Shown here in pieces: positions 28,783 to 40,710 of a DNA stretch of 64,000 nt. The position numbers were made by a program, and so were the translations under genes. The DNA is from a virus. The notes below the pieces were generated by a model. That model saw nothing but the letters and a program-made list of their open reading frames with translations. It was not told where the DNA came from and did no database searches. Each line of letters begins with the position of its first letter. Position 1 is the stretch's first letter. The stretch lies in IMG/VR virus record IMGVR_UViG_3300025005_000002, positions 32,001 to 96,000 of that record. The stretch is one strand, 5' to 3'.

Positions 28783-30462
28783 ATGGATGATAATGCAAAA
28801 CTGATGGAGGCCTTGGAGGTTATGAAGAAAAACCTCATTGAGGCCAAAAAAGTTATTATGGCACAAGAAGAGGTTTTGGATCAATTTCGTACCCCCCCCT
28901 TTCTTCAAGGTATCGTTATTGGTGGCGTTACTGGGCAGATAGAGTGGTCTAAGTTTGTTAAGGGTTTAAAGGTAAAACTTCGTAGGGATTCCAGTTTTGC
29001 CCATCAGAGTACAGTCCCCGGAGTAATACAAAAGATTGATGAGAGTGGTTGGGCTCAAGTCTTGTGGGATAACGGTAGTTCTAATTCGTATCGTACCGGT
29101 AAACCTGGGACTGACGAAGGTGTATGTGACCTTGAATTTGCTGAAAATTCACTTGGTGAAGAAATTTGTGTGCTTGAGGGTTCGTCGGTGCATTATGCCC
29201 AAAAGCCATATATTAGGGTAGAATTAGGCGATACGGTAACTCTAAATCCGATGACGAAGCAGGTAATTGGTGTCGTGGCTCCGGTGATATCTGGGGAGAT
29301 CCGATATGTTAATAAGGTGATATCAGATGAATTGGTGGAAGTCTCTCACCAGGATGCATCCAAAGTAGTACTCACTGGGAAATTTGCCAAAAAGATGGAA
29401 AAAGGGGACCGTGTTATTGTCGATAATACTGCAACAATTGTCCTGAACAACCTGGGAAAGGACGAGACAAAGTTTGAGGTTAAAACTTCATCAATGTCAA
29501 TCAACTGGGATGATATTGGTGGGTTGGAAGATGCAAAGAGAGAGATGGTCGAAATTGTGGAACTTCCTCATAAGTATAGCAATTTATATAAGTTTTATAA
29601 CAAGAAACCGGCAAAAGGGATCTTGTTGTGGGGCCCTCCTGGTTGTGGTAAGACCATGCTTGGAAAAGCAGCAGCTACTGCAATGGCTGCTATTCATAAG
29701 CAGAATGGCAATGGAAGCGGATTTCACTATATCAAGGGACCCGAGATCCTGGACAAATATGTGGGTGTGGCAGAGGCCACAATTCGCAGGATCTTCGAAA
29801 ATGCCAAAAAACACAAGGCTAAGAACGGGTTCCCTGCTGTAGTATTTATTGACGAAGCCGACGCCATCCTAGCTAGGCGTGGTTCTGGTATCAGTTCGGA
29901 CATAAATAATACCATCGTCCCGATGTTTTTGGCGGAGATGGATGGTATGGAAGAGTCTGGTGCACTGGTATTGCTTGCGACCAATAGGGCCGATGTACTT
30001 GATCCCGCAGTAACACGTGATGGGCGAATTGACAGGAAGATAAAAGTCACAAGGCCTACAGTGAAGTCTGCTGCTGAGATTTTTATGATCGCCTTAAAGG
30101 GCGTTCCCACCAATAAGGATATACCTAAGGTGGTACTCTCACAGAAGGCTTCTGAATCATTGTTTTCCGATACCAGAATATTATATGAGATTCGTACTAA
30201 AAGGGGTGGCATGATTCCGTTCACACTTAAGCAATTGGTGAATGGGGGGATGGTGGTCGGTATTGTGGATCAAGCGATTTCAATCGCTATCCACAAAGAC
30301 ATTAAGAGGTCAGCAAAGACTGGGGTATGTGAAGAGGATATAATGATGGCGATTGACAAGATTGAGGCACAGAACTGTGGGCTCAATCATAACACTGAAT
30401 TGGAAGAAGTTGTTGCTGGTTTTCGTGAAGATGTTACAAATATTATTCCTATAAGGAGGTAA
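28783..30462 (+). CDS. arc: ARC/Mpa-type proteasomal AAA+ ATPase
   Basis: N-terminal coiled coil ending TPP; WDDIGGL; Walker A GPPGCGKT; IKGPEILDKYVG; Walker B FIDE; RGSGISSDINNTIVPMFLAEMDG closely follows the ARC/Mpa consensus; RDGRID. Likely start ATG 28783. Confidence 0.88.
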   Translation: MDDNAKLMEALEVMKKNLIEAKKVIMAQEEVLDQFRTPPFLQGIVIGGVTGQIEWSKFVKGLKVKLRRDSSFAHQSTVPGVIQKIDESGWAQVLWDNGSSNSYRTGKPGTDEGVCDLEFAENSLGEEICVLEGSSVHYAQKPYIRVELGDTVTLNPMTKQVIGVVAPVISGEIRYVNKVISDELVEVSHQDASKVVLTGKFAKKMEKGDRVIVDNTATIVLNNLGKDETKFEVKTSSMSINWDDIGGLEDAKREMVEIVELPHKYSNLYKFYNKKPAKGILLWGPPGCGKTMLGKAAATAMAAIHKQNGNGSGFHYIKGPEILDKYVGVAEATIRRIFENAKKHKAKNGFPAVVFIDEADAILARRGSGISSDINNTIVPMFLAEMDGMEESGALVLLATNRADVLDPAVTRDGRIDRKIKVTRPTVKSAAEIFMIALKGVPTNKDIPKVVLSQKASESLFSDTRILYEIRTKRGGMIPFTLKQLVNGGMVVGIVDQAISIAIHKDIKRSAKTGVCEEDIMMAIDKIEAQNCGLNHNTELEEVVAGFREDVTNIIPIRR

Positions 30463-30465
30463 GTT

Positions 30466-30693
30466 GTGAGTGCACAGGAGCAGATTAAGAAGAGGTCGCA
30501 TAAAGGCGGTGGGGGGGGCGGTTCTAATGATTTTGACGGTCTTGGGCTTGAAATGGCCGTTATCCCCGGCGTTGATGAAGTGTTACGCAATTTAGATAGT
30601 GATATTAAGAATGTTGGTGGGTTGATTAATAGGACACAGGAAAGGATTAATCAGAGACAGGACCGGCGTCCTTCGCATAATTGTGAATGTTAA
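30466..30693 (+). CDS. Pup-like small protein (no C-terminal GGE/Q; ends CEC)
   Basis: MSAQEQIKKRSHKGGGGGGSNDFD versus Pup MAQEQTKRGGGGGDDDD; VDEVLRNLDSDI versus TDDLLDEIDDVL; RBS AGGAGGT directly after arc. Confidence 0.6.
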   Translation: MSAQEQIKKRSHKGGGGGGSNDFDGLGLEMAVIPGVDEVLRNLDSDIKNVGGLINRTQERINQRQDRRPSHNCEC

Positions 30694-30709
30694 TTTTGGA
30701 GGTGGCACA

Positions 30710-31045
30710 ATGTTTAATGGGCTGCTTGTTTGTTTAATACTGGCTGGTGCGGTGGCATCAATTTCTTGCTCCATTAGTAAGGCTGGGGTTATGAGACCCA
30801 TCAGGCAATGGGTCCGTAAAAAGAATGCATGGCTTGGTAAACTTGTGTCCTGTGTATATTGTACTAGCCACTGGATATCAGCGATATTAGTTATAATTTA
30901 TAGGCCAATCCCGTTGCGTTTAGTACAACCAATTGATTCAATAGTTGCCATATTTTTGATAGTGACTATGGCAGCTGGGATGATTTATTGGATTGATTGG
31001 TCTATTGGTTTTCAACCAGATCCACCACAAGAGGGTAATCAATGA
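30710..31045 (+). CDS. DUF1360-like membrane protein
   Basis: Hydrophobic helices with LVSCVYCTSHW (CxxC-x-x-x-W); RBS GGAGG before ATG 30710. Confidence 0.6.
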   Translation: MFNGLLVCLILAGAVASISCSISKAGVMRPIRQWVRKKNAWLGKLVSCVYCTSHWISAILVIIYRPIPLRLVQPIDSIVAIFLIVTMAAGMIYWIDWSIGFQPDPPQEGNQ

Positions 31046-31911
31046 GGGTACATCCAGATTCGGTGGTTGCTTTAAAAGAGGCCTATTTCAAGAATAAACC
31101 CGAATTATCTAGGTTTGTGGCTGGTCGTTTAAAGGTCAACAAACAAACCGTTGTTGGTGTACATGCCAAGCATTTTAAGGAGGTATGTAAGGTACTAAAA
31201 TTACCAATAAGTAAGTTAAAAAGTAGTCGTACTGTATATCGTGGAGTGTATATGGCTACAGTAGACGAATCATTTAAGTCAAAACTGAAAGATAAAAGAC
31301 AAGAAATGCGGCAAAAATATATTGAAATAGCTAGTGGTTTAAGGTCAAAAAAAGCAGTGGAACACCTAAAACATGCGATACATGATCAAGAAGCACGCAT
31401 CCACGCGATTCAAATAGATTTGGTAAATAACCTAAAAAATCTTGAGGGGAAAAATAGAGAATATAAAGTAATTTGTGAAGGTGATCAGGGTACCACAGAA
31501 AACAAAGGTGTTGAATTTGATAAGTTAATGGCTAATCCTGATATAGTAAGGATATTTATAGATGATAATTATTTTACTGTATGGACTAGACCTATTTATA
31601 TTAAGTATAATAATAAGATATATGATGTTGGTGAATTTAAAATAGTATTAGCAATTAACCCTACGGAATTTATAGTAAAAATGCGTAATTTGACCAGAAA
31701 GATTAAAGGTTATGCTCATCCACACATACGTAATAATGGGCGGCCATGTCTTGGTAATATCCAAGAATGTTTACCTCAAATGATTGCAGCACGGCAATTT
31801 GCAGCCGCTATTTTTGTATGTATTCAATATTTAAAATCAGTTAATGATAGTGGATATTATGTAAATATTCACAATTGGCCTTTAAAAATGGCAAAGAGAA
31901 GAGGGAAATAG
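31042..31911 (+). CDS. Coiled-coil plus prokaryotic E2/UBC-like conjugating domain
   Basis: HPHIRNNGRPCLG has the UBC spacing HP(N/H)I-x3-G-x2-CL including the catalytic Cys; upstream GEFKIVL strand. Confidence 0.75.
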   Translation: MRVHPDSVVALKEAYFKNKPELSRFVAGRLKVNKQTVVGVHAKHFKEVCKVLKLPISKLKSSRTVYRGVYMATVDESFKSKLKDKRQEMRQKYIEIASGLRSKKAVEHLKHAIHDQEARIHAIQIDLVNNLKNLEGKNREYKVICEGDQGTTENKGVEFDKLMANPDIVRIFIDDNYFTVWTRPIYIKYNNKIYDVGEFKIVLAINPTEFIVKMRNLTRKIKGYAHPHIRNNGRPCLGNIQECLPQMIAARQFAAAIFVCIQYLKSVNDSGYYVNIHNWPLKMAKRRGK

Positions 31912-31945
31912 GAAAGAGATATCAAGGTAAGATTGGGGTATATTA

Positions 31946-32578
31946 ATGGATACAATTCTAATGCGTCGAAAATATATAGATCTAGTTAGTGGTAATAGAT
32001 TAAATAAGATAAAGAAGCTGGAACGGTTAATGCGTGATAAAGAAGAGCACGTTGTTGCGGCCCAAATTGATTTGGTAAATTATATTAGAGATCTTGAGGA
32101 AACAAGGACTGAATACCAGGTAGCCCGTATTGATACACCAGAGTTTGCGGAAATTAAAGGTATAGAATTTGATAGATTAATGACCCATCCAGACATAGAA
32201 GGTTTATTAATAGATGAAAATTATATTACTATATTTACTGGGCCAATTTATATTGAATATCACAATAAAGTGTATGATATTGGTAAATTTAAAATTGTTT
32301 TATCAATTAATCCGAGGAATTTTATTGTAAAAATGCAAAATTTGACCAGGTCATTAAATGGTACAGCTCATCCACATGTGTATGAAAATGGAGATCCATG
32401 TCTTGGTAATATCCAAGAATGTTTACCTCAAATGATTGCAGGGTATCAATATGCAGCAGCGATTTCAGTGTGTATCCAATATTTGAAATCAGTTAATGAG
32501 GATGGTGGACATCGTTCAAAGATCACAAATTGGCCTTTAAAAAAGGCTAAGAAAGAAGAGGAAAATGACAAAAAGTAG
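31946..32578 (+). CDS. Coiled-coil plus prokaryotic E2/UBC-like conjugating domain (tandem paralog)
   Basis: HPHVYENGDPCLGNIQECLPQMIA; near-identical blocks to 31042..31911. Confidence 0.75.
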   Translation: MDTILMRRKYIDLVSGNRLNKIKKLERLMRDKEEHVVAAQIDLVNYIRDLEETRTEYQVARIDTPEFAEIKGIEFDRLMTHPDIEGLLIDENYITIFTGPIYIEYHNKVYDIGKFKIVLSINPRNFIVKMQNLTRSLNGTAHPHVYENGDPCLGNIQECLPQMIAGYQYAAAISVCIQYLKSVNEDGGHRSKITNWPLKKAKKEEENDKK

Positions 32579-33308
32579 ATATTATGATGGGTATTTAAAT
32601 GGAGATTATGGGGGTGGTTGGGATGGTATGTATGTACACACACCTGCTCCGGCCAGGCCCTTGGTACCACACGTAGCAGAAACAAAAGTGGAACGTCTGG
32701 GTGCAAATGAAATCCCAAATATCCTTATTTCTATAGAGGCCCTTCGTGATATGAATTATATCATGCAGGAGAGTGGTACTGAAGAAATATCATGGCTTGG
32801 GTCTGTGAAAGAGACTGAGAATGGTGGGTATTTAATCGAGAAAGTATTTTTATTTAAGCAATCAGTAAGTTATGAACATACCGAAATTGATCAGAACAGT
32901 GTCAGCCAATTTTATATTGACATGCTCAAGGCCAACCCAAACAACAAGGCTATGTTGAATCGTATTCTCTTCTGGGGACATGTTCATCCTGGTAGTTGGG
33001 TTGGACCATCTGCACAGGATGAGAATCAGATGGATCTGTTTGCGCACAATAAATATTTTATCCGTGGGATATTTTCCAGAGAAGGGCACTGTTCTTTCAC
33101 GTTCTTCGATTACGAACGTAAGTTGAAGATTGTTGATTGCCCATGGCAAATCGATGTTAAGGTTGGCCATGATGAAAACCGCAGGAAAGAAATCGCCAAA
33201 GAGATTAAAAAGAAGGTAACTCATGGAGGAGGGTATATATGGCAAGGGACAAAGGGGGAAGGCTGGTGGAAGGAAAAGGACAAGAGCCTGATTTCTGGCG
33301 ACAGTTAG
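32565..33308 (+). CDS. JAB/MPN+ (JAMM) metalloisopeptidase
   Basis: EEISWLG..HVHPGSWVGPSAQD fits E-x(n)-HxH-x7-S-x2-D. Confidence 0.88.
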   Translation: MTKSRYYDGYLNGDYGGGWDGMYVHTPAPARPLVPHVAETKVERLGANEIPNILISIEALRDMNYIMQESGTEEISWLGSVKETENGGYLIEKVFLFKQSVSYEHTEIDQNSVSQFYIDMLKANPNNKAMLNRILFWGHVHPGSWVGPSAQDENQMDLFAHNKYFIRGIFSREGHCSFTFFDYERKLKIVDCPWQIDVKVGHDENRRKEIAKEIKKKVTHGGGYIWQGTKGEGWWKEKDKSLISGDS

Positions 33309-33940
33309 ATATCTTTTCGCCAACGAAGTTTAAGACGCCAGTTACTGTAATTGGCGCGGGTGCTACGGGCTCATACATCACTATGCTCCTTGCCAAAATG
33401 GGATGTAAGGATATTACAGTGTATGATGATGATGGAGTAGAGAATTACAATCTACCGAATCAAATATTTAGGATTAAGGATATTGGGGCCAAAAAAGTCC
33501 ATGCTATAGCTGAAATGGTGTTGGATGCAACCGGTGTTAAGATCAAAGCAATCCCCAAAAAATTCACTGGAGGACCGTTAAAGGGAATCGTTTTTGTTCT
33601 TACTGATACTATGAAAAGTCGGAAACAGATATGGGATAAGTCAGTGAAATATCAACTAGCCGTTGATCTATTAATTGAAACCAGGATGGAGGCTGAGGGA
33701 GGGAGGATATACGTAGTTAAGCCAACAATTCCTGCGCAAGTGGAGGCGTATGAAAAAACACTCTATTCAGACGAGGAGGCTGAAGAATCTGTGTGTACAC
33801 GTCGCGCTATTGCTCCTACAGTAGACACAATCGCTGGGATGGCAGTATTCTCTATGCTCAATTTCGTTAACAACAAACCATTTCCAAATGAAATAATTTT
33901 GTCGTTGTCTCCGATGTTAATCATCAATAAAAAATTCTAA
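33239..33940 (+). CDS. E1-like ThiF/MoeB-family activating enzyme
   Basis: WRQ, VIGAGATG, VYDDD, NLPNQ, TDTMKSR and the Cys in ESVCT; no Zn-binding CxxC pairs. The true start may be slightly downstream. Confidence 0.9.
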   Translation: MARDKGGRLVEGKGQEPDFWRQLDIFSPTKFKTPVTVIGAGATGSYITMLLAKMGCKDITVYDDDGVENYNLPNQIFRIKDIGAKKVHAIAEMVLDATGVKIKAIPKKFTGGPLKGIVFVLTDTMKSRKQIWDKSVKYQLAVDLLIETRMEAEGGRIYVVKPTIPAQVEAYEKTLYSDEEAEESVCTRRAIAPTVDTIAGMAVFSMLNFVNNKPFPNEIILSLSPMLIINKKF

Positions 33941-33954
33941 GGAGGATTAGAACA

Positions 33955-34185
33955 ATGACTGAGTCTAACAAGGGTGAGAATATTATTACCATCGGCAAGA
34001 TCCCAGGTCAGCTGCATGAACTGGCAATTGATGGGAAGAAGAAGATCTGCGAGTTATTTGGTCTGATTGGGATTAAGGATTTGGGTAGCTGCGAGATCCA
34101 GAAGAACGGGAACAGCGCCGAAGTTAACGAATACGTCGAGGCCGGGGATACGGTTTTGGCGGTGGCCAAGATTCGTGGAAACTAA
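33955..34185 (+). CDS. Ubiquitin-like (beta-grasp) protein
   Basis: 76 aa; pattern IITIGKIPG..EIQKNG..VEAGDTVLAVAKIRGN; RBS AGGAGG; directly after E1. Confidence 0.8.
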   Translation: MTESNKGENIITIGKIPGQLHELAIDGKKKICELFGLIGIKDLGSCEIQKNGNSAEVNEYVEAGDTVLAVAKIRGN

Positions 34186-40302: not shown

Positions 40303-40380
40303 GCCTCCATAGCTCAATTGGGTAGAGCATTCGCCTTATAAGCGAAAGGTTGGTTGGTTCAATTCCACCTGGAGGCACCA
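40303..40380 (+). tRNA. tRNA-Ile(UAU)
   Basis: Acceptor GCCTCCA/TGGAGGC, D arm AGCTC..GAGC, anticodon stem TTCGC/GCGAA with loop CTTATAA, T loop TTCAATT, encoded CCA. Confidence 0.88.
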
Positions 40381-40393
40381 ATATCGCTGGGAG

Positions 40394-40645
40394 ATGCTCT
40401 ATCCTAATTGTGGGGTTGATAGTATCTCCTCTGCTACCATGGGTAACATCTCCCAGCGATACCAAAAGAAAGGAGTATCAGAAGATAAATGCTACAAATG
40501 TGGTGTAACAGATTGGATGGGAGAGCCATTAAGCAAACATCTTCATCATAAAGATGGTAATAATGAAAATAACGTAAGAGAGAATCTAGAAAATCATTGT
40601 CTAAAAACATATGCCAAGATAAAGGGGGAGTGGCGGAATTCGTAG
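40394..40645 (+). pseudogene. Degenerate HNH endonuclease remnant
   Basis: CYKCGVTDWMGEPL..HHKDGNNENN..NL, lacking the final CPNCH. Confidence 0.55.
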
Positions 40646-40710
40646 ACGCAAGGGCCTTAAAAGCCCTTGGCCTTAGGGCCGTGAGAGTTCAATTCTCTCC
40701 TTCCACACCA
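40624..40710 (+). tRNA. tRNA-Leu(UAA)
   Basis: TGGCGGAAT..AGACGC D arm, AGGGC-CTTAAAA-GCCCT anticodon arm, long variable arm, GAGAG-TTCAATT-CTCTC, CCA end; one acceptor mismatch (G2:A71). Confidence 0.8.

Follow-up and report, generated by a model that had tools for sequence, protein, structure and literature searches.

A cysteine-tailed, Pup-like small protein of a large phage as a candidate ligase-free adaptor between an ARC/Mpa-like ATPase and a DUF1360 membrane protein

Recognition of the small protein Pup by the ATPase Mpa is known only within pupylation, which also involves a ligase, a depupylase and the proteasome and which has been found in Actinobacteria and a few other phyla. Outside the Actinobacteria, several Gram-negative phyla employ UBact, a short and disordered Pup-like tag that ends in a ligatable Gln or Glu and is encoded together with PafA/Dop-like enzymes and a proteasome. 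Here, we analysed a small phage gene (nucleotides 30466 to 30693, plus strand) that is located in a DNA stretch of 64,000 nucleotides (positions 32,001 to 96,000 of the IMG/VR virus record IMGVR_UViG_3300025005_000002). This stretch is called the window throughout the text and all coordinates refer to it. The source genome comprises 178 kb and is 92% complete. An original prediction made from the sequence described the gene product as a Pup look-alike without a ligatable end and offered three functions for it: a decoy jamming the ARC ATPase of the host, an adaptor for the ATPase of the phage or a tag attached by Cys-based chemistry. Our data tentatively favour an extended form of the second proposal, in which the protein acts as ligase-free, Pup-like adaptor in a three-gene module that additionally involves an ARC/Mpa-like unfoldase and a DUF1360 membrane protein. 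No published description of this three-gene module was found in the literature searched.

The phage locus resembles the Pup system in several respects. Both systems encode a small protein of about 60 to 75 amino acids together with an ATPase of the ARC/Mpa type, and in both cases a flexible, QEQ-containing basic N-terminus of this protein is followed by a Gly-rich/acidic linker and, at the position of the Mpa-binding helix, by an acidic heptad helix. However, the phage protein carries a basic tract and Cys-x-Cys where Pup has its ligase-binding C-terminal half and GG(Q/E). Moreover, the phage lacks PafA, Dop and the 20S proteasome, in its ATPase the GQYL tail is missing and an additional N-terminal domain is present, and a DUF1360 membrane protein constitutes an obligatory third gene of the phage module. 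From the UBact system the phage locus differs in the same way, since such enzymes, the proteasome and the ligatable end are all missing.

The translation of the small open reading frame (ORF) is identical with the sequence quoted in the original prediction. It starts with MSAQEQIKKRSHKGGGGGGSNDFD, carries VDEVLRNLDSDI in its middle part and ends with RPSHNCEC. The ATPase gene stops with TAA at 30460-30462, and a single codon separates this stop from the GTG start of the small gene. The GTG is located six bases past an AGGAGG sequence, at which the codons of the ATPase read Ile-Arg-Arg-stop. Because this Shine-Dalgarno sequence lies inside the final ATPase codons, the two genes look translationally coupled, and since the signals of the small gene overlap or abut the end of the ATPase gene, its earlier placement directly after arc was correct. 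In the window both ORFs share the same reading frame and are split by TAA plus one codon (30460-30468), but this is a coincidence because the frames differ in loci L001, L004 and L008. For the same reason a read-through fusion of the two proteins was dropped as candidate product.

The small ORF is a genuine gene under purifying selection. We found ten homologues with 32-79% identity, six of them at 63-79% in a search covering about 5.8 billion proteins and four further ones at 32-51% among 1.8 billion proteins. The ratio of nonsynonymous to synonymous substitution rates (dN/dS) was 0.06-0.15 when the gene was compared with its closer homologues. It is single-copy in the phage genome. Searches of Pfam, NCBIfam, PHROGs and PADLOC did not yield a family match, and when viral contigs were searched with a profile of the small-protein alignment, zero relatives were confirmed. 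A scan for promoters and terminators gave counts that were no higher than in shuffled sequence.

A wider family became apparent from the ATPase, which has more than 2,000 relatives. Many of these are 42-56% identical over their full length and reside on large contigs, some of which are labelled as candidate phyla radiation (CPR) bacteria. On three such contigs the ATPase gene is immediately followed by one for a protein of 59-64 amino acids, which starts with MLQD(R/K) followed by basic residues, contains PQIDDVL or PQLEDI and ends with CRC, CTC or CTCCC. We examined 80 IMG/VR loci that contain a related ATPase. About 35 of them carry such a gene directly after the ATPase gene, and in five further loci it is located behind an inserted gene or is present as tandem copies. 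It was also found 3' of the ATPase gene in L001, L004, L008, L009 and L014-L016. Taken together, the two genes are linked in more than 40 phage or CPR-labelled loci, down to an ATPase identity of about 40%. A profile search of genome contigs with the close ATPase alignment recovered only two unrelated AAA loci, since the search patterns were clade-specific.

When 41 members of this family were aligned, Met1 and the two Cys residues (C73 and C75) were the only invariant positions, each Cys being kept in 41 of the 41 sequences. Conservation of the Cys-x-Cys, which the original prediction had proposed to check, thus extends to all homologues. The order of the parts is also common to all 41 members: the basic N-terminus is followed by a linker rich in Gly and in most cases by a Pro, then by a helix with its onset around residue 30 (family median), a basic tract and the Cys tail. 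The first 15 residues carry a median net charge of +2. In the close family Q4 does not change. In the protein of the window the heptad a/d positions of the helix are occupied by V36, L40, L43, I47, V50, I54, T57 and I61. The predicted pattern of QEQ/poly-Gly plus acidic helix was recovered in part: Q4 persists in the close family and the acidic helix near residue 30 in the family at large, but the poly-Gly run has disappeared from the more distant proteins. In addition, there is a second tail class of longer proteins (76-115 amino acids), which carry three Cys in a C-x-C-G-x3-C-x-I-G-P-F-like end (L031, L032, L036, L037, L048, L051, L027).

The gene following the small gene encodes a membrane protein of the DUF1360 type, for which the PF07098 score (31.5 bits) exceeded the cut-off of 21 bits. 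A DUF1360 relative is present in 37 of the loci examined. Among non-redundant loci, it comes immediately after the small gene in all 22 that have a terminal or near-terminal CxC, but in only three of the 13 that have the long tail of the CxCGxxxCxIGPF type; the loci behind these counts are related and do not represent independent events. In the class linked to DUF1360 the CxC is either terminal or at most seven residues away from the end. Five loci initially appeared to have DUF1360 without the small gene, and in all of them the small gene was found just upstream. An apparent fusion of the two proteins in L047 was rejected as longest-ORF artefact, since a separate CxC gene of 62 amino acids is present there. 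In the membrane protein a CxxC is kept in all 30 aligned DUF1360 neighbours within the context G.L.SCPYC.SHW, which comes after a basic loop, where the second hydrophobic helix begins. The overall pattern points to a Cys tail that works together with the CxxC-x-SHW motif of the DUF1360 protein. The pairing of CxC tail and DUF1360 had not been noticed in the original prediction, and it is this membrane protein, not an enzyme or an E1/E2 cassette, that constitutes the constant companion. The ATPase linkage is the more general one, because the long-tail variants stay after the ATPase, mostly without DUF1360.

In three loci, tandem small genes precede DUF1360 (L035:5515-5984, L044:5316-5818, L025:5286-6045). 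In L035 and L044 one copy carries a CxC...C...C..H cluster and the other one ends with CCCC. The CGC-tailed copy of L025 is preceded by a longer ORF that has a similar N-terminus and no CxC.

Next to this constant neighbourhood stands the likeness to Pup. In Pfam and NCBIfam, the hidden Markov models (HMMs) of Pup (PF05639, TIGR03687) did not match the small protein at E values up to 1, and PF05639 did not match at E up to 10 in the six frames of the whole phage genome. The UBact relationship was covered by the same searches, in which the small ORF had no Pfam or NCBIfam match at E up to 1, the presence of a UBact model in these libraries being unconfirmed. The ligatable GG(Q/E) end is missing and is replaced by NCEC. 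PF03136 (PafA/Dop) did not match anywhere in the genome (178 kb, 92% complete), while a control genome did match, and neither 20S (PF00227) nor ClpP was found in this genome. With HMM, end and PafA/Dop all negative, membership of the small protein in the Pup family is not demonstrable. The description as a Pup look-alike without a ligatable end was nevertheless appropriate.

For comparison at the profile level we used 14 database Pups, all of them PF05639-annotated and all from Mycobacteriales. When the close family was aligned with these Pups by hhalign, only the heptapeptide AQEQIKK/AQEQTKR aligned (P 0.0037). With the 41-member family, residues 32-48 aligned with Pup 33-49 (score 22.6, P 3.2e-4, probability 39%). 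None of 200 column-shuffled Pup profiles reached this score (mean 7.7, maximum 11.7), and the reversed Pup profile scored 14.8. At a permissive setting, a single colinear alignment of small protein 1-58 with Pup 1-61 was obtained. The Pup stretch that includes residues 33-49 turns helical on the Mpa coiled coil (PMC8223512). Judged by these alignments, the small protein is colinear with Pup, and its layout and register are Pup-like beyond composition. Common descent with Pup is possible on this basis, the other explanation being convergence on the same docking solution. A feature search of the ESM Atlas returned SNARE-like and unnamed clusters (0.77-0.87, below lead level) and no Pup.

The upstream ATPase was assigned the ATG start at 28783, which gives a protein of 559 amino acids, the length of all close homologues. 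Among the NCBIfam models, TIGR03689 'proteasome ATPase' matches best (2.5e-89, 300.3 bits, profile positions 83-492 of 512), although the score stays below the equivalog cut-off of 504.75. PF00004 matched with 2.3e-32, and residues 147-523 align with Mpa of M. tuberculosis (5kwa, 1.9e-57), an alignment that begins at the oligonucleotide/oligosaccharide-binding (OB) region and runs through the AAA module. The two Walker motifs (A, GPPGCGKT; B, FIDEAD) and the pore loop (KYVG) are intact, and an OB region followed by a single AAA module with pore loop is present. The parts follow each other in the order N-terminal helix of four heptads (residues about 5-35), extra beta-rich domain, OB region and AAA domain. 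The hydrophobic 3-4 repeat of the N-terminus (L7, L11, M14, L18, A21, I25, Q28, L32, F35) was read from the sequence and the coiled coil is putative. By such reading, the N-terminus of the ATPase and the small protein have about four heptads each. The extra domain (residues about 45-170, nucleotides 28915-29290) separates the N-terminal helix from the OB region, whereas Mpa has no insert at this position. It gave weak matches with MIB_HERC2 (E 2.6e-4) and DUF4314 (4.7e-3), both under their cut-offs. The ATPase ends with IRR and lacks a GQYL/HbYX tail. Many of its relatives (L014-L028 and others) end with -AA, -TA or -VA, those of the clade of the window end with -IRR or -VRR, and none has an end of the GQYL type. 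A 131-amino-acid ORF before the ATPase gene was rejected as fourth component of the module, since its relatives are confined to the close clade and an unrelated ORF of 98 amino acids was found in L014 and L016.

Complex formation was predicted with two copies of ATPase residues 1-240 plus the small protein, using custom alignments. The interaction prediction score from aligned errors (ipSAE) was 0.32, compared with 0.01 for the best control. In the calibration set, 58 of 80 solved complexes but just two of 110 mismatched pairs reached the mark; with values not exceeding 0.60, just seven of the 80 solved complexes reached it, as did both passing mismatches. This calibration holds only roughly here, because custom alignments and two copies were used. 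In the predicted complex the predicted local distance difference test value (pLDDT) of the partner reached 52 or more, and the runs shared no fewer than 57% of the contacts. The structure of a Pup-Mpa complex has been solved, and for this reason the pass may reflect likeness to, or memory of, that complex. In summary, the model weakly supports docking of the small protein on the N-terminal region of the ATPase.

Combining these observations, we suggest the following mechanism. The helix of the small protein would dock on the N-terminus of the phage ATPase, at its four-heptad helix or coiled coil, in the way the Pup helix docks on Mpa, and because it is docked there, the flexible N-terminus would be placed at the pore. 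The basic tract and the CxC might be located at the cytoplasmic face of the membrane and be joined to the CxxC(H) site of the DUF1360 protein, either by a shared metal (probably Zn) or by a disulfide. As a result, the unfoldase would be tethered to the membrane protein or pull on it, and this would not involve a Pup ligase, a depupylase or a proteasome. For the motor, extraction of the membrane protein, retention at the membrane and gating by the peptide are all conceivable. Among the three functions initially considered, that of an adaptor for the phage ATPase fits best, since an ARC-like ATPase is encoded alongside in more than 40 loci and the helix aligns with the Mpa-binding helix of Pup; the complex prediction supports it weakly. 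In its working, the suggested arrangement may resemble the membrane tethers of AAA+ proteins (p97/Cdc48 recruiters such as UBX-domain membrane proteins, or membrane-anchored FtsH), with a small factor that would recruit a ring-shaped unfoldase to a membrane protein. By sequence these tethers are unrelated, and the phage version would use a Pup-like helix and a Cys-x-Cys/CxxC-x-SHW junction instead.

In many large phages and CPR-labelled contigs, the recognition half of the system, with its ARC-like motor and its Pup-like peptide for docking, stands alone and is combined with another coupling device, a Cys-x-Cys tail and a CxxC membrane protein. If the mechanism is correct, Pup-like targeting would work without enzymatic tagging. 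This would provide a handle on the origin of pupylation and would define a new class of phage-encoded, membrane-directed unfoldases.

Several data weigh against the adaptor proposal. PF05639 matched none of the 41 family members at E up to 10, so that the profile search remained negative for the ORF, for the frames of the genome and for the family. Conversely, the family profile found no Pup chain among the PDB sequences at E up to 10, and only weak coiled-coil matches were obtained. The hhalign probabilities were just 9-43%, and since reversed Pup still scores 14.8, part of the Pup signal is generic acidic amphipathic periodicity. The Pup profile was drawn solely from Mycobacteriales, and Pups in general are not known to share the MAQEQTKR-GGGG start. 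For the predicted complex the score was only a weak pass and no interface was reported. Because of the extra domain between N-terminal helix and OB ring, the docking geometry may differ from that of Mpa. Up to seven residues trail the CxC in some members, the poly-Gly run is gone in distant ones, and the Cys-Cys coupling to DUF1360 is inferred from co-occurrence in related loci that are not independent.

A more far-reaching version of this proposal is possible but rather doubtful. Here, the Cys-tailed proteins would be relatives of Pup that work without a ligase, with the CxC being locked by a metal or a covalent Cys link on the CxxC-x-SHW site or on other targets. The ARC-like motor would grip the N-terminus and extract or remodel the membrane protein during infection, and in the clade of the window and in L015 the module would be wired to a cassette of E1, E2, JAB and ubiquitin-like (Ubl) proteins. 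If true, the proteins would represent a hitherto unseen branch of pupylation, or its precursor, with a wide distribution among phages and CPR bacteria.

Alternatively, the small protein might work with the membrane protein only, as metal-binding or redox subunit of the DUF1360 protein that does not bind the coiled coil of the ATPase, while the ATPase acts on something else. The likeness to Pup would then be convergence of a disordered, acidic, helix-forming peptide. The strict pairing of CxC and DUF1360 is consistent with this explanation, as are the lack of a Pup HMM match, the score of the reversed Pup profile and the nature of the PDB and Atlas look-alikes, which are generic coiled coils and SNARE-like proteins. 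However, the long-tail variants keep their place after the ATPase mostly without DUF1360, the Pup alignment is colinear with a score far over the shuffles, and the complex prediction is a weak pass. We consider such a membrane-only role unlikely.

Still less probable is a pseudo-substrate or regulator that engages the pore of the ATPase with its N-terminus and is itself threaded, or stalls on the Gly-rich stretch; it would gate or time the motor and not recruit it to a membrane protein. Mpa reportedly begins unfolding by engaging the free N-terminus of the tag (Striebel et al. 2010, cited in PMC8223512). Gly-rich tracts weaken the grip of AAA+ motors. The phage ATPase has an intact pore loop, and the basic N-terminus and the Gly-rich linker of the small protein are kept in outline. 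On the other hand, the poly-Gly run is variable, and this scenario leaves the invariant Cys pair and the obligatory DUF1360 neighbour unexplained.

The idea of a tag that is attached via Cys chemistry could survive only in altered form, and we regard it as improbable. In this case the CxC end would be linked covalently to targets of the ATPase, perhaps by the adjacent E1/E2-like enzymes. An E2-like/JAB/E1/Ubl cassette does adjoin the module in the clade of the window and in L015, and there are two E2-like paralogues for only one evident Ubl. However, in most loci E1/E2 genes are out of reach while DUF1360, the membrane protein, is the constant companion. E1 enzymes adenylate the C-terminal Gly carboxylate of a beta-grasp protein, but the small protein has neither a C-terminal Gly nor a beta-grasp. 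Moreover, a separate Ubl candidate of 76 amino acids is already there, and the CxC can be followed by up to seven residues.

A decoy that occupies the coiled coils of host ARC/Mpa and stops degradation of pupylated proteins would suit a Pup-resembling layout without ligatable end, but it is disfavoured to the point of being hardly credible, because the module always brings its own ATPase (and a membrane protein) and occurs outside actinobacterial settings, with phage DNA from groundwater and aquifer samples and relatives in CPR-labelled contigs, whereas the Pup-proteasome system is known mainly from Actinobacteria and Nitrospirae.

Table 1. Features of the module and of the adjoining genes (window coordinates)
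Feature	Position	Strand	Basis
ARC/Mpa-like AAA+ ATPase, 559 aa, ATG start	28783..30462	+	TIGR03689, PF00004, Mpa 5kwa
AGGAGG Shine-Dalgarno sequence of the small gene, inside last ATPase codons	30454..30459	+	direct sequence reading
Pup-like Cys-tailed small protein, GTG start, 75 aa	30466..30693	+	translation, homologues, alignment; dN/dS 0.06-0.15
N-terminal basic QEQIKKR motif and Gly-rich/acidic linker, residues 1-25	30466..30540	+	family alignments; hhalign residues 3-9 vs Pup 2-8
Pro34, then putative amphipathic heptad helix, residues 34-62	30565..30651	+	hhalign to Pup 33-49; heptad pattern
Basic tract (QRQDRRPSH) and terminal Cys73-Glu-Cys75	30652..30690	+	alignment of 41 members
DUF1360-type three-helix membrane protein, 111 aa	30710..31045	+	PF07098 1.8e-07, 31.5 bits
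CVYCTSHW, invariant CxxC-x-SHW motif	30851..30874	+	alignment of 30 DUF1360-like neighbours
Clade-specific cassette after the module	31042..34185	+	context, outside conserved core
Two E2-like paralogues	31042-31911, 31946-32578	+	HPH...C-L-G motif; weak PDB matches of E2b mostly E2 enzymes
JAB/JAMM peptidase	32565-33308	+	HxH-x7-S-x2-D motif read from sequence
E1/ThiF	33239-33940	+	ThiF 1.6e-23
Ubl candidate, 76 aa	33955-34185	+	sequence reading
aa, amino acids

The cassette downstream of the module (Table 1) is missing from most other module loci. A similar set is located 1.2 kb from the module in L015 (L015:11868-15600), the ATPase of which is only 46% identical. It comprises an E2-like protein of 285 amino acids, a Ubl of 86 amino acids ending with GGIQTS, JAB, ThiF and a second AAA protein. 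With its ThiF-type E1, JAMM peptidase, E2-like HPH...C proteins and Ubl candidate, the cassette of the window resembles the E1-E2-JAB-Ubl operons of the Bil/Bub type. The module itself differs from these operons in that the Cys-tailed protein has no Ubl family match and is Pup-like, not Ubl-like, and in that most module loci lack the cassette.

The region 28783-31042 was detected wholly or partly in contigs of 24 groundwater and aquifer metagenome runs, several of which may be the source sample or belong to one campaign; 16 of them contained at least half of its sampled words. All listed runs were DNA metagenomes and no RNA runs containing this region were listed. The phage carries genes for tRNA-Ile(TAT) and tRNA-Leu(TAA) at 40303-40710, and neither the tRNAs nor the PHROGs annotation of the large ORFs gave an indication of the host. 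The segment 16400-19600 forms a GC-rich island with 51-59% GC, compared with 28-42% in the rest of the genome; its ORFs (160-294 amino acids) had no Pfam match and no Rfam family reached the threshold there. Over the entire window (1-64000), the plus strand exhibits a uniform and strong skew of G over C (0.16-0.28 per 4-kb bin), and all larger ORFs are located on this strand.

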